64,000 nt of DNA from IMG/VR virus record IMGVR_UViG_2802428989_000001, positions 1 to 64,000 of that record. One strand, 5' to 3'. The translations under genes and the position numbers were made by a program. The notes beneath the pieces were generated by a model. The model was given only the letters and a program-made list of their open reading frames with translations. It had not been told where the DNA came from and did not search any database. Positions within the stretch are counted from its first letter, which is position 1. Every line of letters starts with the position of its first letter. Below are positions 2,389-11,737 of this stretch, piece by piece. This DNA comes from a virus.

Positions 2389-2612
2389 CACTAGTAGTTA
2401 GCGGTCCTGTCAGTTCTATTTGAGCTTGAAATTACCGGTAATGCAACTAGTAGCTCGTGGTTGCTGAACTTTACAACATCACTGCTCAGTGCGCAGGGCT
2501 TCGTTAGTCCACCCGCGTGGCGGGCTAGTAGATTCGCTGGACACGGCATATCAGTGGTTGACAGAGCAGTAGCTAGTAGTTGATGATCTACGCATCCCGT
2601 TCACCTACTAGT
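2389..2612. promoter_or_regulatory. Divergent promoter/operator region of the immunity switch, with five copies of ACTAGTAG (one inverted).
   Basis: ACTAGTAG at 2389-2396, 2445-2452, 2524-2531 (GCTAGTAG), 2572-2579 and, inverted, 2605-2612. TTGACA at 2558-2563. The region lies between the divergent genes at 2365 and 2630. Confidence 0.55.
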
Positions 2613-2941: not shown

Positions 2942-3177
2942 TGTCCGATCTGATCACCGGCGAGATCACAGTCGGAATGGAACCGATCTTCGTACCCAAG
3001 AAAGTCGCCGCTAGGGCGCTGGGTGAGATCTCCCTGAACAAGCTGAACGAACTCATTAGGACAGGTCGTATCAATCCCCGAGTTTTAGACGGACGCGTGA
3101 TGTTCACGCCCGAAGAGTTGCGGAGATTTGCTGCCGAGCTGCCCTCATGGGAGCCCCCAGAGAGTCGGGGGCACTGA
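2941..3177 (+). CDS. Excisionase-like / MerR-type HTH DNA-binding protein.
   Basis: ATG at 2941 overlaps the upstream stop (TAATG). 'VAARALGEISLNKLNELIRTGRI' HTH. Small gene beside int and the repressor. Confidence 0.45.
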   Translation: MSDLITGEITVGMEPIFVPKKVAARALGEISLNKLNELIRTGRINPRVLDGRVMFTPEELRRFAAELPSWEPPESRGH

Positions 3178-4529
3178 TGGCACTGAAACTCGGTTCACTA
3201 TTTTCGGGCGCTGGAGGCCTGGATCTTGGTGTCGCTTCCATCTTCGACGCTGAGACCGTCTGGGTCTGCGAATTCAACAAAGACGCTCAGAAGGTGCTCG
3301 CGGCCCGCTTTCCGGGTCTACCCAACTTGATCGACGTGACCACCGTGGACTGGGCGACGGTAGAGGGTGTTGACATCCTGTGCGGCGGTTTCCCATGCCA
3401 GGACGTGAGTTGCGCGGGTGTTCGCAAGGGGCTTACCGAGGGGACGCGCTCTGGTCTCTGGTCCTACTTCGCCGAGGCTATCTCTGTGCTTCGCCCGAAG
3501 TTCGTCGTCATCGAGAACGTGAGGGGACTGCTCAGTGCAACCGCCGATCGCAACATGGAACCCAACGACTCAGACCTGGGAGAAGACGCAGGACAACCTA
3601 CACTCAACGCAGCCGGAGCCGTACTCGGAGACCTGGCCGGACTCGGGTACAACGCGAGCTGGCGGACTGTATCCGCGTCATGGTGGGGAGCCCCGCATCA
3701 GCGCGAGCGAGTCTTCATCCTTGCCTATCGTGCCGACCTCACGGCGACAGAAGTCGAAGAAGCAATCCGACCCGAATCAGGGGTCCATTTTGGACTGATC
3801 ACCGCCGAGTCGGGTGATCTGCTGCCGACACCCACCGCTGGCTACTACACGCGCGGGTCAAAGCATTTGATGCTGCCGTACGTCGCTCAGTATGCAACCG
3901 GCCACGATCCGGTGCCCGATCGGCCAGATCTAAAGGGTCGTCCTGATCCACTTCTGCCTACACCTATTGCGCTCCAGAACAACACACACAACAGCGCAGG
4001 TAAGCCGATGCTGACCGGACTGGTCAAGGAGTTGTTTCCGACGCCGACAGCGAGCGACGGAAACGGCGCTGGACCACACGGTGACGGCGGCCCGGATCTG
4101 CGGACGGTGGTCAGCGGCATGTTCCCGCTGATGCCTACGCCGGTGGCGTCCGACGACCGAAACGGCGTGCACCCCGACAAACGGCGGAGCTACGGCATCG
4201 GTGCGTCGATCGTCCAGATCGTTGATCTCGCTGTCGCCTACGGCGAACCCGAGTGGCACCAGTACGACCCGGCGATCAAGCGATGGGAGGCGCTGTTTCG
4301 TCCAGCGCCGTATCCCGTGGTACCCGGCAACGGGTCGCCTCAGCTCAACCCTCGGTTCTCCGAGTGGATGATGGGCTGGCCGCAGGATTGGGTCAACATC
4401 GACGGCCTGTCTCGTCGCGTCCAGAACCGCATCTGTGGCAATGGCGTCGTGCCGCAACAGGCCGCTGGCGCGCTGCGCTGGATGCTCAGTGACCTAATCG
4501 CAGAGCTGAATGCGGCGGTGGCGGCATGA
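3177..4529 (+). CDS. DNA (cytosine-5)-methyltransferase.
   Basis: Motif I 'FSGAGGLDLG', motif IV 'GFPCQDVS', motif VI 'VIENVRGL', motif VIII 'QRERVFILAY', motif X 'GNGVVP'. An alternative start is ATG 3147. Confidence 0.9.
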   Translation: MALKLGSLFSGAGGLDLGVASIFDAETVWVCEFNKDAQKVLAARFPGLPNLIDVTTVDWATVEGVDILCGGFPCQDVSCAGVRKGLTEGTRSGLWSYFAEAISVLRPKFVVIENVRGLLSATADRNMEPNDSDLGEDAGQPTLNAAGAVLGDLAGLGYNASWRTVSASWWGAPHQRERVFILAYRADLTATEVEEAIRPESGVHFGLITAESGDLLPTPTAGYYTRGSKHLMLPYVAQYATGHDPVPDRPDLKGRPDPLLPTPIALQNNTHNSAGKPMLTGLVKELFPTPTASDGNGAGPHGDGGPDLRTVVSGMFPLMPTPVASDDRNGVHPDKRRSYGIGASIVQIVDLAVAYGEPEWHQYDPAIKRWEALFRPAPYPVVPGNGSPQLNPRFSEWMMGWPQDWVNIDGLSRRVQNRICGNGVVPQQAAGALRWMLSDLIAELNAAVAA

Positions 4530-5293
4530 GCGCCGTCGACCAGTACATACCCGTAGCCGGGCTGCTGGAGCCACTGGGGCTGACCTGGAGTCATCAGACA
4601 TCTCTCGCTGCGCTACTCGCGGCCAACGATGAGGGCAAAGATCTCGCAGCCTGGGACCGAATCGATCTCAAGGCGTATCAGATCGCAACTGCGGAGATGG
4701 AGATGGTCAGCATCCTTCCGACCTTCGTCCACGACCAGCTCAAAGCGATCGCGGTTCCCGACCGAATCGTGTACTACCGCCACAACTTCTATCTGATGGG
4801 CATTGAGACGGGCGCGGAAGTTCATCGCTCGACGATCGCACTCATGGCGTTGGCCGCGCGAGGCAAGAGCTACGACCCCGCGGCTAAAAAACGCATCAAG
4901 GGTCTACCGATGGACATCGACCGCGGGCTGATCGTGCACATCCCCGAGGGTGCAAAGAAGGCCACCGTGCACTGGGTCAATCTGCTACGCGGATGGGGCG
5001 ATGTGTCGCTGGCACACAGGCTCTCTGAGCTTCGCAAGCGCACTGTCAAGGACTACATCGCGCCCGTGCGGCGTCCCGACGACCGGCCCAAGAACGCTCA
5101 GGCTTACCGCCGTCGCGGCCAGTTCGACAACTTTTCCAACAGGACACGCAAGCGGTTCGACGTACTCGCAGCACGTGCGAAGGACATCGAAGAGCTGCGC
5201 GACGTGTACACGCGAGCGCACAAGAACATTGCGCTCACCCCCAGCTTCAAAGAGGCATGCAAACGACGGCTAGCGGAGCTGTCGGCCTCCTAG
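4526..5293 (+). CDS. Hypothetical protein; degenerate paralog of the RecB/Cas4-like nuclease at 8235 with the nuclease motifs lost.
   Basis: Shares 'PDRI', 'IVHIPEGAKKATVHWVNLLRGWGDVSLAHRL' and the C-terminal 'IEELRD...FKEACKRRLAELSAS' with 8235..9164. The D-x-K and QxxxY positions are replaced ('YLMGIETG', 'ALMAL'). Confidence 0.5.
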   Translation: MSAVDQYIPVAGLLEPLGLTWSHQTSLAALLAANDEGKDLAAWDRIDLKAYQIATAEMEMVSILPTFVHDQLKAIAVPDRIVYYRHNFYLMGIETGAEVHRSTIALMALAARGKSYDPAAKKRIKGLPMDIDRGLIVHIPEGAKKATVHWVNLLRGWGDVSLAHRLSELRKRTVKDYIAPVRRPDDRPKNAQAYRRRGQFDNFSNRTRKRFDVLAARAKDIEELRDVYTRAHKNIALTPSFKEACKRRLAELSAS

Positions 5294-5335
5294 AAGGGCA
5301 TCACAACAACGACACCAACGAATGGAAGGAATGAG

Positions 5336-5443
5336 ATGTCATCCAAGGAAACGACTTTCGGTGACTACGCGTCCTGGCTGATGTTAGCCATGACCGGGCC
5401 GATCGTCGCGGCGGCGTACCTGATCCGAGTGGGGGCGTTCTGA
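5336..5443 (+). CDS. Small membrane protein (35 aa), not in the ORF track.
   Basis: RBS 'GGAAGGAATGAGATG'. Hydrophobic 'WLMLAMTGPIVAAAYLI'. The stop overlaps the next start (TGATG). GC-rich third positions. Confidence 0.35.
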   Translation: MSSKETTFGDYASWLMLAMTGPIVAAAYLIRVGAF

Positions 5444-5766
5444 TGGACACCAACTACCCGACGTACCCCAGCGGCACCATCGCGTACTGGGTATGCCCAC
5501 GCAACGACAATCATGTCTCGGTGCTGCTGCGCGACGCCAACGGCTGGAACCTATCCGGCGTCGCTGAGCATGGCAATTTCACCATGTTCATGGAGCCGCT
5601 GAAGTTGGGGCTTGCGCTGTTGACGGGTCATTCGATTCCGGTCATCAGCGACCAGGACTTCCACGAACTCCAGCAGGGACCCAAGCCGATGGTCGTGACC
5701 ATCGTGCACATTCCCACCGCGCCGTTGGTCACCGACGAGGACGAAGAGGTGGCCGACCATGCGTGA
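5443..5766 (+). CDS. Hypothetical protein (paralog of 5759..6307).
   Basis: 'CPRNDNHVSVLLRDANGW' resembles 'CPDNDNHAVFGLRAEDGW' in the next gene. Operon-style overlaps. Confidence 0.55.
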   Translation: MDTNYPTYPSGTIAYWVCPRNDNHVSVLLRDANGWNLSGVAEHGNFTMFMEPLKLGLALLTGHSIPVISDQDFHELQQGPKPMVVTIVHIPTAPLVTDEDEEVADHA

Positions 5767-6307
5767 GTATCCCATGGGCTCAATGGTGTTCACCATCTGC
5801 CCGGACAACGACAACCATGCAGTCTTCGGTCTGCGCGCCGAGGACGGCTGGTATCTCATGCAGGTCACCGAATCGAGCACGCTCAAGATCACCCAAGAGC
5901 CGTCCACCGACGAGGAGATAATGGGCGATCTGGATATGACGTGGATCGTCTGCCGTGACCCGTTGATGACGATCATCGGGCCGGACAAGACGAGGCCGGA
6001 TGAGTGTCCCAGTGGCAGCATCATTTTCAGCCGCATGGAGGATCATCCGTTCGCGATCGTCGCTGGCTTGAAAACGCTGGACGGCTGGGAATTTGCACGT
6101 ATCAACCCCGACGGCAAGTTTGAGGCGATGGCGTTCATCCATCACCTACTGACTCACCACCTGGGGATGAACGTCGGACTACCGCAGGACAGCAACGTGT
6201 TTGGCAGTGAAGACGTTGACCCGCGGTACGTGATCGGCGGTGACTGGACGATCGTCCACGTTCCTACGGTCGTCACCACCCCCGTATCGAAGGCGGCGGA
6301 GAACTGA
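5759..6307 (+). CDS. Hypothetical protein (paralog of 5443..5766, longer).
   Basis: Shared N-terminal motif with the previous gene. The start overlaps the previous stop. Confidence 0.55.
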   Translation: MREYPMGSMVFTICPDNDNHAVFGLRAEDGWYLMQVTESSTLKITQEPSTDEEIMGDLDMTWIVCRDPLMTIIGPDKTRPDECPSGSIIFSRMEDHPFAIVAGLKTLDGWEFARINPDGKFEAMAFIHHLLTHHLGMNVGLPQDSNVFGSEDVDPRYVIGGDWTIVHVPTVVTTPVSKAAEN

Positions 6308-6834
6308 TGGACCTGATCGTGGTGGACCTGGAGACCACAGGTCTTGACACCGATGTTCACTCGATCCTGGAGGTGGCGGCTGTCAATGTCGCCACCGGCC
6401 AGGAACTCTACTTCGTGCCCTACATCAAGCCTGATCAGATGATGATGGCCGACCCGGAAGCGCTGCGTATCAACAGGTATTACGAACGCGGTGTGTTCCG
6501 CAAGATGCTCAAGAGTCCCGACGACAACGTCCAAGCCTATCGCGAGCTGTTCGACATGCTGAAAGACAACAGGCTCGGCGGCGCTAACCCCCGTTTCGAC
6601 GCCGACATGCTGGTCAAAGCAACTGGCTACGCGGAGTCTTGGCACTATCGGCTGGCCGATGTGTGCGCGTACGTCAGCGGCGCTCTGGGATTCGACCCTA
6701 GCGACATTCGCGGCCTGCATGACATGTGCGTATCGCTATCGGTGGACACCGGCACTGAGCACAGCGCCCTAGACGACGCCAGGGCGACCGCAGCATGCTT
6801 CCGGGCCGCCGCACTGGGACCCCGGAGTCGATGA
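6307..6834 (+). CDS. DnaQ-like 3'-5' exonuclease (DEDDh family).
   Basis: Exo I 'VVDLETTGLD' and Exo III 'HSALDDARA'. Confidence 0.85.
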   Translation: MDLIVVDLETTGLDTDVHSILEVAAVNVATGQELYFVPYIKPDQMMMADPEALRINRYYERGVFRKMLKSPDDNVQAYRELFDMLKDNRLGGANPRFDADMLVKATGYAESWHYRLADVCAYVSGALGFDPSDIRGLHDMCVSLSVDTGTEHSALDDARATAACFRAAALGPRSR

Positions 6835-7247
6835 TGGGAAGGTTTAAAGAGTGGTTCGGCCAACTCGTGCAACAGCTTCCGTCGCAAGACGTGGAGGCGC
6901 GTGTCGAGGTCGACAACTGGCTGACTGCGGGCAACAACCTGATCGTGGAGGCCGGCGCGCAGGATCATCAGTTGTTCCTGCGCATGAACGGTAGTGACTG
7001 GCCGCTGCGATCGGGCACGTACGCCCTGGCGACTAGCCAGGGGCGGCGGCTGCTGCTGTCAACGCACTGGGACGAAGTTGACGACTGGGCGGTCTACGTC
7101 GGCACCGAGACGGTAGACCAGCACGACACACCCCCGGTGTGGGACGTGAAGTTCCGCATCGTCCCCTTTCACCGAGTTAGGGACCCACTGGTCATCATCG
7201 CCCTGGAGGACGGGGAGTTCCTGACGGACATTGAGGAGATCGCATGA
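6831..7247 (+). CDS. Hypothetical protein.
   Basis: ATG at 6831 overlaps the upstream stop (ATGA). GC-rich third positions. Confidence 0.55.
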   Translation: MMGRFKEWFGQLVQQLPSQDVEARVEVDNWLTAGNNLIVEAGAQDHQLFLRMNGSDWPLRSGTYALATSQGRRLLLSTHWDEVDDWAVYVGTETVDQHDTPPVWDVKFRIVPFHRVRDPLVIIALEDGEFLTDIEEIA

Positions 7248-7963
7248 CACTCGCACTGGTCACCGACGACATGACGACAGGTGTTCTGAAAACAACTGAT
7301 GGCGAGCGTAACTCGCGCAAGAAGCTGTACTGGAAACGTCGGCGAGAAGCGCTATCGGGCGTCGCGCTGGAACGCTTGGCAGATCTTGGTATTGAGTTCC
7401 CGGTGGTCGCGGGAACCATGACTATCCCCGAGGTTTGCGACTACTTCGGAATCAGCCGTTCGACACTGACCAACATAGCCCGCCAGTACTACGAAGAGCT
7501 GATCGAGGTCGGTTACATGCCCGGCAGCGTGACACAGCCGACGCGGTACAGCGAGTTGGCGCTTGCGCATGTTGCGATGATCCTGCGACCCAGCACATCT
7601 GACCAGGCGATGATCATCCAGAAGGCACTAGGCATCTACCGCGCACCTCGCGGAGCCGTCAAGGTCCACAACCAGAGTGGTGCTCACGTCAAGGTCTGCG
7701 GCCGCGTGCTCGATGAGGCATACAAGCTGATCAGTGAGATTCGCGAGGATGACCCCGAAGAGGTTTGGAAGGCGCTGGAGAAACGCAATCGTCATGAGCT
7801 GCAAGTGCTCACGGTGGCGTTGGCGGCGCTAGTGCCGAATGACCGCGGTGGACTGCGCGCTTGGCTGGCCGAAATCGGTCTGGGCATCCGCTCGGACGCT
7901 CAGAACAAGGCAGCGGTCGGGCTGGCCAGCTTGGTCCCGAGTCGTCAGCAGGTGTCTGAGTGA
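7244..7963 (+). CDS. Hypothetical DNA-binding protein (HTH).
   Basis: 'IPEVCDYFGISRSTLTNIARQY' HTH-like. The start overlaps the previous stop. Confidence 0.5.
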   Translation: MTLALVTDDMTTGVLKTTDGERNSRKKLYWKRRREALSGVALERLADLGIEFPVVAGTMTIPEVCDYFGISRSTLTNIARQYYEELIEVGYMPGSVTQPTRYSELALAHVAMILRPSTSDQAMIIQKALGIYRAPRGAVKVHNQSGAHVKVCGRVLDEAYKLISEIREDDPEEVWKALEKRNRHELQVLTVALAALVPNDRGGLRAWLAEIGLGIRSDAQNKAAVGLASLVPSRQQVSE

Positions 7964-8238
7964 ACGAAGTCCCGGCCCGTCGCCGCGCGGTCTACGACGG
8001 TGACGCGCGCGAGGTTGCCAACACCCCCCAACTGCTGGGGCCGTGCTCCCGTGGCATTTTCTGGCGACCCGTGTCAGCGGCGTACGACAGCGAAAACGAC
8101 AACACCACAGTCGTATTCGCACCCGTACCGCGCGACGAGGTGATGGCGATTGCTGCCAAGCAGCTTGACGCACATCGCGAGACGCTGATTGACCTCGCGG
8201 CCAGTGGACTTCTCGATACCAAGGGGACACGCAAGTGA
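7960..8238 (+). CDS. Hypothetical protein.
   Basis: Translationally coupled ORF in the early operon. Confidence 0.45.
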   Translation: MNEVPARRRAVYDGDAREVANTPQLLGPCSRGIFWRPVSAAYDSENDNTTVVFAPVPRDEVMAIAAKQLDAHRETLIDLAASGLLDTKGTRK

Positions 8239-9164
8239 GCGACCAGTTCACCAACGACATTCCACGCGATGGCTGGGGTCGCCCGAAGATCAAGCAGCCA
8301 GACGGCAAGCTCAAGGCTTACCGCCGTACCACCAAGTTCATCAACGTGCTCGAAGACACCTACAACCTGGAGAAGTGGAAGCTGCGCCAGGTGGCACTAG
8401 GCCTGGGGCAGCGTGAAGACCTGGTGCTGGCCGCTGCGTCGTGCACACAAGAGGACAAGGGAACGCTCAACGACGTAGCGCACAAGGCGATGGAGCACGC
8501 GCGGTCATCATCTAAGTCGACCACCGGGACGGCGCTGCACAAGCTGTGCGAGCGCGTGGACCGCGGCGAGCCCTTGGGTTCCATACCGTCGGCATTCGTT
8601 GGTGACATCGAGGCCTATGAGAAGTGTCGCGACGCCAACGGCTTGAAATACAAGCAAATCGAAATGATGCGCGTCCTGCATGACTGGCAGGTCGCCGGCA
8701 CCCCCGACCGGGTTGGGGAGTACCACGGGAAGCACTACATCATCGACGTAAAGACAGGCGACATCACCTGGTCTGAGCGTGAGATCTCGATGCAGCTTGG
8801 CGCATACTCGCGCAGCACCGCGTACACGGCCGATGGCGACGTGGATGACGGGTTCGTGATCGACCAGGACCGCGCGATCGTCATCCATCTGCCCTCCGGT
8901 CAGGGTAAGTGCGAGTTGCACTGGGTGGACATCTCGCGCGGATGGAAGGCATGCCAGCTCGCCAGGCAAGTGTGGGACTGGCGCAGCGAGAGTGGTCTGT
9001 TCGTCCCGATCAGCGAGGACGATCCACTCATCCCGCTCGCGCTGGCCTGCACCACCGTGGAAGAACTTCGCGACCTCTGGCAGACCGCCTATGAGGAGGA
9101 CGCGATTGACGATGCGTTCAAGGTCGTCGTCAAGCGGCGCCTCGCCGAACTCGGCGCAGCGTAA
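8235..9164 (+). CDS. RecB/Cas4-family PD-(D/E)xK exonuclease.
   Basis: 'TPDRV...IIDVKTGD...EREISMQLGAYS' gives the D, (D/E)xK and QxxxY motifs. Typical phage recombination nuclease. Confidence 0.7.
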   Translation: MSDQFTNDIPRDGWGRPKIKQPDGKLKAYRRTTKFINVLEDTYNLEKWKLRQVALGLGQREDLVLAAASCTQEDKGTLNDVAHKAMEHARSSSKSTTGTALHKLCERVDRGEPLGSIPSAFVGDIEAYEKCRDANGLKYKQIEMMRVLHDWQVAGTPDRVGEYHGKHYIIDVKTGDITWSEREISMQLGAYSRSTAYTADGDVDDGFVIDQDRAIVIHLPSGQGKCELHWVDISRGWKACQLARQVWDWRSESGLFVPISEDDPLIPLALACTTVEELRDLWQTAYEEDAIDDAFKVVVKRRLAELGAA

Positions 9165-9199
9165 TCAACAACAACGGCACCATCAACGAAAGGCACGAA

Positions 9200-10180
9200 A
9201 TGAGTTGGCAGATGTGGACGTTCATCGTCCTGGCGTTTATCGCGGTCCCGATCATCGGGGTCGGTCTTTGGATGCTGCGAAAATCCGGCAGTGTTGGACC
9301 CAAGCCCGAGAAGGATGGGCCCAATGACTATGACTACACGTACAAGCTGCGCGACTGGGAGAACCAAGTTGATCGCGTGGAAGAGAATCGCGGAACGTCC
9401 AAGCTGACGATCATCACTGGTGCGGCCATTCTCGCGCTGGCGACGATCATTCTCACTTTCGGATGCTTCACCATCGTTGCGACGCGCAGCGTCGGCATCG
9501 TGACCACGTTCGGGAAGCCCTCCGGCACAACGCTCCAGAACGGCCTACATGCCAAGGCCCCTTGGTCGAACGTGACCGAGATGGATGGCGCGATTCAAAA
9601 TGACGTGTTCAACGGCGACCACCGCGTGAAGATCCGTCTCGGCAACAACTCCACCGCGGACGCAGATGTCAATGTGCGCTGGCAGATTAAGCCCGATGCC
9701 GCTGATGTGCTCTTCGTCCAGTACAAGACGTTCGACAATGTGAAGTCCAACCTGGTCACTCGCTCGCTCCAGTCGGCCATGAATGAGACTTTCGCGTCAT
9801 TCGATCCTCTGGAGCCCAAGAACGCCACGAACGGCGCTGATCTGGGTGCACTGTCGAGGCAGGTTCAACAGCGTCTCATCGCCAAGATCAGCAGCCAGAT
9901 CGACGTGCTGGAGGTCAACGTTCCGATCATCGATTACGACCAGCAGACCGAGGACAAGATCAACCAGTACAACGCCGAGAAAGCCAATACTGCTGTCGCA
10001 GAGCAGGCGAAACAGACGGCAGAAGCGCAGGCCGCCGCCAACAAGATACTTGCGTCGTCGGTGTCCAATGATCCGAACGTCATAATCATGTACTGCATCC
10101 AGAAGTCACTGGAGAAGGGGCAGCCCACCGCTGGCTGCTGGCCGATCAACGGCGCCATTCCCACGGTGCCGGTTCGATGA
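9200..10180 (+). CDS. SPFH/band-7 (prohibitin/HflK-like) membrane protein.
   Basis: Two N-terminal TM helices. 'ATRSVGIVTTFGKPSGTTLQNGLHAKAPWSNVTEMD' matches the SPFH core pattern. Coiled-coil/Ala-Gln-rich C-terminal part. Confidence 0.55.
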   Translation: MSWQMWTFIVLAFIAVPIIGVGLWMLRKSGSVGPKPEKDGPNDYDYTYKLRDWENQVDRVEENRGTSKLTIITGAAILALATIILTFGCFTIVATRSVGIVTTFGKPSGTTLQNGLHAKAPWSNVTEMDGAIQNDVFNGDHRVKIRLGNNSTADADVNVRWQIKPDAADVLFVQYKTFDNVKSNLVTRSLQSAMNETFASFDPLEPKNATNGADLGALSRQVQQRLIAKISSQIDVLEVNVPIIDYDQQTEDKINQYNAEKANTAVAEQAKQTAEAQAAANKILASSVSNDPNVIIMYCIQKSLEKGQPTAGCWPINGAIPTVPVR

Positions 10181-10533
10181 CGACCGTGAACACCCTCACC
10201 GAGTACCAGCGTAGAGCTGCCGAGACAGCTATCTACCCCGGTGCTGATGACATCGAAAGCGTAGACGGTTTGGCCTACGTAACAATGGGTCTCGTCGGCG
10301 AGGCTGGTGAGATCGCGAATAAGGTCAAGAAGATCCTTCGGGATGACGGCGGTGTCATCACTGCTTCCGCTCGTTTGCGACTGGTCTTCGAGCTGGGGGA
10401 TGTGCTCTGGTACCTGGCGCAGACGGCGACCCAGCTGGGGATCGATCTGGATTCGATTGCGGGCATGAACATCGCCAAGCTGGCCTCGCGTTCTGAGCGC
10501 GGCACCCTGCAAGGGTCCGGTGATGCGCGGTGA
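10177..10533 (+). CDS. mazG: MazG-like nucleoside triphosphate pyrophosphohydrolase.
   Basis: 'YVTMGLVGEAGEIANKVKK' and 'ELGDVLWYLAQ' EExxE/D motifs. Confidence 0.85.
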   Translation: MTTVNTLTEYQRRAAETAIYPGADDIESVDGLAYVTMGLVGEAGEIANKVKKILRDDGGVITASARLRLVFELGDVLWYLAQTATQLGIDLDSIAGMNIAKLASRSERGTLQGSGDAR

Positions 10534-11021
10534 AGAAGAAGCGACTGCTGCGCCTTGTCGCCAATGAGCGTGAGCGCGCCGACAAGGCGACGCAGACGAT
10601 TGAACGACTCACTCGTGAGGGTGAACAGAATCGCCAGAATCACAAGGAAACTCGCGAGAAGCTACAACGCACGATGGGACTGATCCGCAAGGCTGAGCGT
10701 GCGACGGCGTATCTCACGCTGCCTGAGTTCGGCTCAATTTCACACTGCCCGATGTGTGACGAGAGGCTTGAAGATATTCAGGTTCACCTCGTTGGCTGGA
10801 CCCAGCCGGACACGCCTTTCACGAAGTCATACAGCGTGCCCACAAGCGGCGGTAGTCCTTACCTGTCAAGCGGATTCGTTAACCGAATTGAATGGTTTGG
10901 CAGTGTCGATAGCGCTGACGAGAATGCTGACACTCCAGCGCATCTGGTCTATCAGTGTGGATGCGGCTACATCTTCCGCACCAAGACGCGCAAGGACACG
11001 CCGAGGGTGGTCATCACATGA
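10530..11021 (+). CDS. Hypothetical protein with a coiled-coil N-terminus and a Cys4 zinc ribbon.
   Basis: GTG start overlapping the mazG stop. 'CPMCDE...CGCGYIF'. Confidence 0.5.
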   Translation: MKKKRLLRLVANERERADKATQTIERLTREGEQNRQNHKETREKLQRTMGLIRKAERATAYLTLPEFGSISHCPMCDERLEDIQVHLVGWTQPDTPFTKSYSVPTSGGSPYLSSGFVNRIEWFGSVDSADENADTPAHLVYQCGCGYIFRTKTRKDTPRVVIT

Positions 11022-11206
11022 CCACACACAAGCGCTACGGCTACAGAGACAGGTATGACCGCGTGACCGGAGACAACGCACAGGCGCGGCGCCTGAATGC
11101 TCAGATAGCGATGATCAGGCGCGCTCGCGAAACCGGGTTCCACATTACCGAGGTCGAGGCCAACCTGGCGGGCTTGCAGTTCAAGCCGCTCGACACCAAG
11201 CCGTAA
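11018..11206 (+). CDS. Hypothetical small protein.
   Basis: ATG at 11018 overlaps the upstream stop. Basic protein. Confidence 0.4.
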   Translation: MTTHKRYGYRDRYDRVTGDNAQARRLNAQIAMIRRARETGFHITEVEANLAGLQFKPLDTKP

Positions 11207-11272: not shown

Positions 11273-11737
11273 ATGAGTGATGACCTATTCGACGGTCCGG
11301 GCTCGGCCGATGTCATCAACTGGGAGGACCTGGAGAAGCGATTGCTACTTGTCCAACCCCTTGAGCTGAAGGTGGGAGTGCCGACCAAGAACTACGGCCC
11401 GAAGGATGCCATTGAGGCCAACGTTCACGTGCTGGACGGCCCGGAGGCTGGCTCGGTGTACCGCAACGGGTACGTCTTCCCGCTGGTGCTGCAAGGTCAG
11501 ATCAAGGGCAACATCGGAACTGGCCGTTTCAACCTTGGTCGTCTCGGCAAGGGTGTGCCCAAGCCGGGCCAGAAGCCGCCCTGGACACTGAGCGAGCCGA
11601 CCGAGGATGAGAAGTCGCTGGCGCGAAAGTATCTCGCTAGCGACAAGTTCCAGCAGAACATGGCCGCGCCTGTCGCTGCGGCATCCGCACCAGCCAACGA
11701 CCCATGGTCGAACAACAGCGCGGAACCGCCGTTCTGA
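11273..11737 (+). CDS. Hypothetical protein.
   Basis: RBS 'GAAAGGA' before the ATG. Coding bias. Confidence 0.55.
   Translation: MSDDLFDGPGSADVINWEDLEKRLLLVQPLELKVGVPTKNYGPKDAIEANVHVLDGPEAGSVYRNGYVFPLVLQGQIKGNIGTGRFNLGRLGKGVPKPGQKPPWTLSEPTEDEKSLARKYLASDKFQQNMAAPVAAASAPANDPWSNNSAEPPF

Follow-up and report, generated by a model that had tools for sequence, protein, structure and literature searches.

A predicted nuclease-dead member of an actinophage exonuclease family, encoded alongside an intact relative in a MabR prophage

Why should a prophage encode, within a single early operon, an apparently intact exonuclease and a second protein of the same family in which the residues of the active site have been replaced? 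The question is raised by a 64,000-nucleotide stretch of viral DNA (the window; positions 1 to 64,000 of IMG/VR record IMGVR_UViG_2802428989_000001), which from position 3000 to 10200 is 100% identical to Mycobacterium phage prophiFSAT01-1 (BK061308.1; a window coordinate is the BK061308.1 position minus 217), a McProf-like prophage of Mycobacteroides abscessus belonging to cluster MabR. The two genes in question, both located in the early rightward operon, are (window coordinates here and below, unless another genome is named):

4526..5293, plus strand: gene 7, product gp7 (255 residues), to all appearances a dead, N-terminally reduced, basic derivative of the exonuclease family; labelled "exonuclease" in BK061308.1.
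8235..9164, plus strand: gene 15, product gp15 (309 residues), an intact RecB/MGME1-type PD-(D/E)xK exonuclease; labelled "Cas4 family exonuclease".

The answer favoured here, and on balance a likely one, is that gp7 is a pseudo-nuclease from the PHROG 466 family, the product of an accessory early-lytic gene that is maintained by selection, and that it acts by binding.

Homology and the loss of the active site

The relationship between gp7 and gp15 was first noticed as a set of blocks shared by the two translations, and each of the quoted strings is found where it was said to be (PDRI and PDRV; GLIVHIPEGAKKATVHWVNLLRGWGDV and AIVIHLPSGQGKCELHWVDISRGWKAC; IEELRD...CKRRLAELSAS and VEELRD...VKRRLAELGAA). 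The alignment check that had been proposed for this relationship places it far beyond chance: BLASTP aligns gp7 47-255 with gp15 124-309 at E=3e-21 and 27% identity over 217 columns, and hhalign matches gp7 24-254 to columns 104-320 of an 88-sequence family profile at 99.75% (E=2.6e-27). PHROG 466 ("exonuclease") is matched by gp7 (E=9e-10) as well as by gp15 (E=2e-65). Pfam PDDEXK_1 is reached by gp15 alone; gp7 has no match in Pfam or NCBIfam, and direct sequence search of the PDB and NCBIfam yields no match for either protein. Human MGME1 (PDB 5zyu, 5zyv, 8xa9) is the best structural match of the models of both, and the RecB-like alpha/beta core fold is retained in the predicted structure of gp7. 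On these alignments the two proteins are assigned to the actinophage RecB/MGME1-type PD-(D/E)xK exonuclease family (PHROG 466). The opinion that gp7 is not annotatable by simple homology must accordingly be given up: the GenBank records of prophiFSAT01-1, McProf and prophiFSIL01-1 call it "exonuclease", and PHROG 466 finds it; its RefSeq name is "hypothetical protein".

The RecB-type signature consists of a motif Ia His on arch helix alpha3, a motif II Asp, motif III (D/E)xK and motif IV QhxxY, and in MGME1 single-stranded DNA (ssDNA) lies beneath a two-helix arch (PMC6237815). In the family alignment gp15 has the full catalytic set (H102, D158, D171, K173, Q187 and Y191); five of these six catalytic-site residues are lost from gp7. 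The motifs of gp15 and their counterparts in gp7 are:

8526-8552, plus strand: gp15 motif Ia, GTALHKLCE.
8697-8711, plus strand: gp15 motif II, GTPDR.
8739-8759, plus strand: gp15 motif III, IIDVKTG.
8790-8807, plus strand: gp15 motif IV, MQLGAY.
4598..4624, plus strand: gp7 residues 25-33, TSLAALLAA, remnant of the motif Ia helix (family GTALHxLxE), with His and Glu each changed to Ala.
4754..4768, plus strand: gp7 residues 77-81, VPDRI, motif II, whose Asp79 is the only catalytic residue kept.
4793..4813, plus strand: gp7 residues 90-96, LMGIETG, remnant of motif III (family I-x-D-x-K-T-G), with Asp changed to Gly and Lys to Glu.
4832..4858, plus strand: gp7 residues 103-111, TIALMALAA, remnant of motif IV (family MQLxxY), with Gln lost and Tyr changed to Ala (Ala110).

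The replacement of DVK by GIE was correctly read at the outset. The companion claim, that QLGAY had become ALMAL, holds insofar as Gln and Tyr are lost either way, but its register is off by one residue: hhalign pairs MQLGAY with ALMALA, and MAFFT deletes the Gln. Also gone from gp7 are the motif Ia His (H102 of gp15, now Ala28), a Cys that is invariant in the family (C226 of gp15, now Ala) and some 75 residues at the N-terminus. The reading of the gp7 motifs comes from alignments of 27, 90 and 270 sequences, the relatives inspected being the best 150 of 287 gp7 matches and the best 120 of 553 gp15 matches. Of the 270 aligned sequences, only gp7 and its own 90% cluster depart from the set D158, D171, K173 and Q187 (gp15 numbering), reading D/G/E/gap at these four positions; each of the four residues is constant in the 268 other relatives in so far as a sequence extends over the column, and no other dead family member is found among those 268. 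In the 10 distinct public variants of gp7 the former catalytic positions drift (residue 28 is S, A, T or F; residue 32 is A, G or T; residue 92 is G or, in one variant, S); D79 and E94 are invariant in all of them. Read from the alignments, drift at these positions is the signature of an abandoned active site.

The missing N-terminal residues correspond to a beta-hairpin and several helices that include the first helix of the arch. The arch of gp15 is made of helices 75-89 and 94-110; the second of these is represented in gp7 by no more than a 10-residue helix (26-35), and the first is unaligned. In the MAFFT alignment, gp7 residues 8-16 look like what is left of IPRDRWGRP, an N-terminal motif of the family, which, if real, would imply an internal deletion as opposed to a 5' truncation; the hint is unconfirmed, since hhalign leaves the first 23 residues unaligned. 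That gp7 is a nuclease-dead homologue of gp15 with an abandoned PD-(D/E)xK active site, as the first-pass annotation had maintained, is very probable on this evidence. Because gp7 fails four of the five sequence-level catalytic features of the exonuclease family, it ought not to be filed as an exonuclease, and the GenBank label is misleading.

Three segments outside the active site define what gp7 has kept and what it has acquired:

4922..4999, plus strand: gp7 residues 133-158 (RGLIVHIPEGAKKATVHWVNLLRGWG), the best-conserved non-catalytic block of the family, a beta-hairpin and the start of a helix.
5042..5170, plus strand: gp7 residues 173-215, an Arg/Lys-rich linker (12 K/R, net +7), modelled with low confidence.
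5171..5290, plus strand: gp7 residues 216-255, the family-specific C-terminal helical module (…IEELRDVY…KRRLAELSAS), shared with the family.

The family likenesses best preserved in gp7 are the hairpin block (RGxIIHxPxG…HWVxxxxGW), in which the family-invariant Cys is the residue replaced by Ala, and the C-terminal module (…ELRxxW…KxRxAEL), which has no match in the PDB or Pfam. The charge of the protein has been reversed: gp7 has an isoelectric point (pI) of 9.79 and a net charge of +12, as against 5.47 and -9 for gp15 and a family median pI of 6.2 (5-95% range 5.2-8.4). Much of this positive charge is held by the linker, where 3 of 43 sites are variable among gp7 variants; the equivalent segment of the family is variable and not basic.

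Selection, origin and distribution

In Nei-Gojobori comparisons of prophiFSAT01-1, McProf and prophiFSIL01-1 (three in all), the ratio of nonsynonymous to synonymous change (dN/dS, omega) of gene 7 is 0.135-0.140, with omega below 0.16 in every third of the gene and an excess of synonymous changes that is significant at binomial p 1e-8 to 2e-11. Corresponding values are 0.02-0.25 for neighbouring genes, 0.035-0.05 for gp15 and 0.10-0.15 for the methylase encoded immediately upstream. All 10 gp7 variants, from M. abscessus, M. chelonae and Mycobacteroides sp., are intact 255-residue open reading frames (ORFs). Gene 7 is a real gene under purifying selection; a decaying pseudogene is rejected on the strength of dN/dS and of the integrity of the ORF in the 10 variants. 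Synonymous divergence (dS) among the three prophages is 0.3-0.6 over the first third of gene 7 and only 0.07-0.18 over its remainder, which suggests a recombination breakpoint inside the gene. Regional variability in gp7 is therefore partly a matter of recombination history and not of constraint alone, and a stronger constraint on the C-terminal two-thirds, at one time read from amino-acid variability, has been withdrawn for the same reason: dS is also lower there, and recombination confounds the comparison.

The genes of McProf that are expressed in lysogeny do not include gp7 (PMC8191103), which is an early lytic gene. A role as a prophage-expressed defence gene is ruled out by its absence from that lysogenic transcriptome list and by the lack of a PADLOC hit.

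An exhaustive HMMER scan of 1.84 billion representative proteins finds orthologues of gp7 only in its own cluster. The next match, P0122 (E=2e-22, 37-40% identity), is a full-length, motif-intact exonuclease of 330 residues that occupies the gp15-equivalent slot in another prophage (integrase/repressor/methylase/Prim-Pol). A neighbour-joining tree over 211 shared columns makes gp7 the sister of P0122 in 142 of 200 bootstraps and never groups it with gp15 alone; no other branch approaches the length of that of gp7, whose distance to the remaining sequences averages 1.66 compared with approximately 1.0. The proposal that a nuclease gene had been duplicated and then inactivated does not survive as a local event, gp7 being nearer to P0122 than to gp15 (27% identity) and the tree agreeing. 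Local tandem duplication of gp15 is ruled out by the grouping of gp7 with a protein that itself sits in the gp15-equivalent slot elsewhere, so that gp7 counts as a paralogue only in the wider meaning of the word and not as a product of recent local duplication. Its most likely source is the exonuclease gene of another phage, acquired through mosaic exchange, with loss of the N-terminal module and the active site thereafter.

The 10 gp7 variants each share a contig with a variant of the 309-residue gp15 allele. The MabR prophages that lack gp7, prophiFVLQ01-1 and prophiFSQJ01-1, both have a gp15 of 348-350 residues that is about 35% identical to other family members, so that within the MabR prophages compared the allele type of gene 15 tracks the presence or absence of gp7 perfectly. 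The gene 15 slot of this one cluster thus holds two alleles (window 8235-9164 as against 7914-8960 of prophiFVLQ01-1, sequence L002, and 8081-9133 of prophiFSQJ01-1, sequence L005), which indicates mosaic replacement of the exonuclease.

Gene 7 directly follows a C5-cytosine DNA methylase gene, a neighbourhood that had been noted, and its ATG overlaps the methylase stop codon:

3177..4529, plus strand: gene 6, C5-cytosine DNA methylase (gp6), immediately upstream of gene 7; start according to GenBank.
4526..4529, plus strand: ATGA, in which the start of gene 7 overlaps the methylase stop, an arrangement typical of translational coupling.

In the gp7 slot of prophiFVLQ01-1 (4793-4846 of L002) a 17-codon ORF, MSFKGTFKRRLAELSVT, overlaps the methylase stop. 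It consists of the first two codons of gp7 joined in frame to the last fifteen: a clean deletion of about 720 bp. Since MSFKGTFKRRLAELSVT joins both ends of gp7, the gene was ancestral in prophiFVLQ01-1, is dispensable, and is not needed by the methylase. The corresponding mini-ORF of prophiFSQJ01-1 (4716-4790 of L005), MSANPAHLDFRPSRQRAWELPTTT, bears a weak resemblance to gp7. The ATGA overlap is kept in the mini-ORFs of both prophages, and a start kept in this position may serve to maintain translational coupling with the genes that follow.

An obligatory functional link between gp7 and the methylase is unlikely, because prophiFVLQ01-1 retains the methylase after deletion of gp7. A degenerate restriction-modification pair made of the two is ruled out: the homology of gp7 is to exonucleases and not to restriction enzymes, its active site is in all probability dead, and the methylase persists without it in both prophiFVLQ01-1 and prophiFSQJ01-1.

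The early operon

The genes run in the order integrase, gp2, immunity repressor (leftward), Cro, excise, C5 DNA methylase (gp6), gp7, a 35-residue membrane protein, gp9, gp10, a DnaQ-like exonuclease, gp12, a helix-turn-helix protein, gp14, gp15, a Band-7 membrane protein and MazG. One upstream element may be added:

2558..2587, plus strand: sigma-70-like promoter match upstream of cro, a consensus match only.

This match is a plausible candidate for the early rightward promoter of genes 4-16; sigma-70-like matches are no more numerous here than in shuffled sequence. A gathering-threshold scan of the whole window (1-64000) against Rfam finds no RNA family.

Three neighbouring products invite comment. 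The ORF of gene 6 reaches back to 3147, the GenBank start at 3177 giving a protein of 450 residues; in the 460-residue translation of the ORF (window 3147-4526) the Pfam DNA_methylase match is limited to residues 14-202, PHROG methylase models span the whole of gp6, and the stretch of about 250 residues that most profiles skip is perhaps a variable or target-recognition region of unusual size. At its C-terminus the 154-residue gp20 (PHROG 870, window 11273-11737) reads ...DPWSNNSAEPPF, a sequence similar to the acidic/aromatic tail in which bacterial single-strand DNA-binding (SSB) proteins end; the annotation of prophiFSAT01-1 lists no SSB and no single-strand annealing protein. The 62-residue McProf gp19 (BK061309.1 11242-11430, equivalent to window 11018-11206) is labelled "Cas4 family exonuclease" and its relatives "hypothetical protein"; with an hhalign probability of 1% against the exonuclease family and no PHROG match, that label looks like an annotation slip.

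Candidate functions and known systems

The dead site, the lost arch, the preserved scaffold and C-terminal module, the gained charge, selection, early expression and the intact relative alongside together argue for a binding role, and we infer that gp7 acts by binding and not by cutting. A mechanism can be sketched, tentatively. The hairpin block and C-terminal helical module of gp7 would dock onto the usual partner of gp15, whether phage or host, or onto gp15 itself; contacts with DNA or with an acidic partner would fall to the newly gained Arg/Lys-rich linker; and the result would be to tune or restrain the processing or resection of DNA ends early in lytic growth. Taken as a whole, this sequence of events is possible rather than probable. 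Relatives of gp15 are mildly to moderately toxic on overexpression in M. smegmatis (PMC10700055, PMC11797047), which makes restraint of the exonuclease plausible. The earlier suggestion of a regulator, inhibitor or decoy finds circumstantial support in the strict co-occurrence with one gp15 allele, the purifying selection and the reversal of charge.

A number of considerations weigh against this reading. The partner of gp7 and its binding to DNA are both predictions. MGME1 is monomeric (PMC6237815), which makes homo-oligomerisation in the family, and with it any joint assembly of gp7 and gp15, conjectural. At an identity of only 27% between the two proteins, a heterotypic interface would have had to survive a long divergence. 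Their co-occurrence comes from essentially two phage lineages and could be explained by plain linkage. Its deletion in prophiFVLQ01-1 makes gp7 dispensable at least for persistence of the prophage. The alignment behind the AlphaFold2 model of gp7 is dominated by active nucleases, which biases the model toward the family fold, and the loss of the arch argues, as far as the predicted structure goes, against the canonical mode of ssDNA binding.

A more specific proposal makes gp7 the non-catalytic subunit of a heteromeric nuclease with gp15, in the manner of XPF-ERCC1 or Mus81-Eme1, with DNA binding or substrate selection as its contribution. The accompaniment of gp7 by the 309-residue allele in all 10 variants speaks for it, as do the loss of gp7 in a lineage where gp15 has been replaced by a 35%-identical allele, the complementary charges (+12 and -9), the retention in gp7 of the non-catalytic family blocks, and the linker lengths: the one that precedes the C-terminal helices is unusually short in the 309-residue gp15 and longest in gp7. 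Set against these points are the monomeric state of MGME1 (PMC6237815), the separation of the two genes by 3 kb and seven genes, and the low identity already mentioned; the heteromer has an outside chance. Dead gp7 and live gp15 might, in a still bolder version, form a dedicated pair in which the basic copy sets when, where and how far DNA ends are resected, possibly so as to restrain the toxicity of the exonuclease; that too is an unlikely construction. To our knowledge, pairing of an active with a dead copy has no described precedent among phage recombination exonucleases.

Alternatively, gp7 could be a functionless relic of mosaic recombination on its way to being lost. Its accessory status, with the in-frame deletion that left MSFKGTFKRRLAELSVT in prophiFVLQ01-1, its branch length, the greatest in the family tree (some 1.6 times the mean distance), its restriction to one prophage cluster and a proportion of variable sites of 15.7%, against 7.1% for gp15 in the same genomes, all fit such a history. 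They are answered by a dN/dS of about 0.14 (p 1e-8 to 2e-11 against neutrality), by a 255-residue ORF free of frameshifts and stops in 10 of 10 variants from M. abscessus, M. chelonae and Mycobacteroides sp., by retention of the ATGA overlap with the methylase stop, and by a shift of charge that is directional where decay would be random. A relic is improbable.

No better placed is the idea of an anti-defence or end-protection decoy that shields DNA ends from AdnAB/RecBCD or distracts a host system that senses exonucleases. Orphan C5 methylases in phages usually serve in anti-restriction, and gp7 is an early-operon gene directly following one; it is also basic, accessory and lineage-restricted, and the last two features are frequent among counter-defence genes. 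Resemblance to known RecBCD inhibitors is lacking, however: the fold matches of gp7 are nucleases, Gam, gp5.9 and Abc2 not being among them, and PADLOC finds no catalogued defence system in gp7. It has lost the arch that holds ssDNA in the MGME1-type fold, and it is not expressed from the prophage (PMC8191103), for which reason it is not a superinfection-exclusion factor either. A decoy of this kind would come as a surprise.

Least probable of all is a nuclease whose active site has been rearranged around Asp79 and Glu94: these residues are invariant in 10 of 10 variants, and the PD-(D/E)xK enzymes BamHI and BglII, with Glu or Gln in place of the Lys, make it clear that a change of Lys to Glu alone need not kill the chemistry, but the acidic residue of motif III has become a varying Gly or Ser, the motif Ia His, the motif IV Gln and Tyr and an arch helix are missing, their positions drift, and none of these changes is seen in the 268 other relatives inspected. 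With His, Asp, Gln, Tyr and half of the arch gone in addition to the change of Lys to Glu, residual nuclease activity of gp7 is very improbable.

The interest of gp7 lies in its being a clean natural phage pseudoenzyme, its site abandoned, its scaffold preserved by selection and its charge reversed. Inactive nuclease paralogues are already known as a phenomenon, and the finding is confined to one small prophage cluster. The correction to the annotation of three GenBank prophage records, which label gene 7 "exonuclease" despite its lost catalytic machinery, is solid; the biology of gp7 is suggestive. With both genes in one genome, the gp7-gp15 pair lends itself readily to tests of regulation. 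The accessory early genes of MabR prophages matter to phage-therapy engineering, since these prophages occur commonly in clinical M. abscessus and influence the phenotypes of the host. The literature searched contains no description of a free-standing, selected, charge-reversed dead phage exonuclease of the recombination type beside a live one, and neither of the two papers on MabR and McProf mentions that gp7 is a dead copy.

Among known systems, the nearest to gp7 are the actinophage exonucleases of PHROG 466 (gp15, DS6A gp69 and P0122), labelled "Cas4 family exonuclease" or "exonuclease" by SEA-PHAGES. It shares with them the predicted core fold, the hairpin block, the C-terminal module and the motif II Asp, and differs in lacking about 75 N-terminal residues, the Ia His, the Asp and Lys of motif III, the Gln and Tyr of motif IV and the invariant Cys; they are acidic or neutral, whereas gp7 is basic, with a long linker rich in Arg and Lys. 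Human MGME1 is an ssDNA exonuclease, active and monomeric, whose arch has two helices (PMC6237815); it aligns with gp7 over only some 150-160 residues at 12-16% identity, gp7 being without half of the arch and without the catalytic set. Cas4 itself (e.g., SSO0001, PDB 4ic1) carries a four-Cys iron-sulfur (Fe-S) cluster and functions in CRISPR adaptation. The gp15 family, with more than 550 relatives, has a single invariant Cys (C226), in place of which gp7, with one Cys overall, has Ala; because there is one invariant Cys and not Cas4's four, the "Cas4 family" label holds at the level of the fold only. There are no cas genes in the early operon of the prophage, and no CRISPR context; gp15 and its relatives are structurally closest to MGME1, which is free of Fe-S.

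Inactive nuclease paralogues that serve as partners or scaffolds include ERCC1 with XPF, Eme1 with Mus81, and the nuclease-like domain of RecC in RecBCD. In Wolbachia, the pseudonuclease PD-(D/E)xK domains of CidB are required for cytoplasmic incompatibility, and structural or nucleic-acid-binding roles have been proposed for them (PMC7465683). gp7 differs from all of these in being a small stand-alone phage protein and not a domain of a larger machine, with no sequence relation to them beyond the superfamily; a physical complex of gp7 would be hypothetical. It resembles them in combining a nuclease fold with a (predicted) dead site, in being kept by selection, and in being co-encoded with an active relative: dead gp7 and an active-type gp15 occur together in 10 of 10 variant genomes. 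If the two do work as a pair, they would constitute a phage counterpart of the logic of XPF-ERCC1 and Mus81-Eme1.

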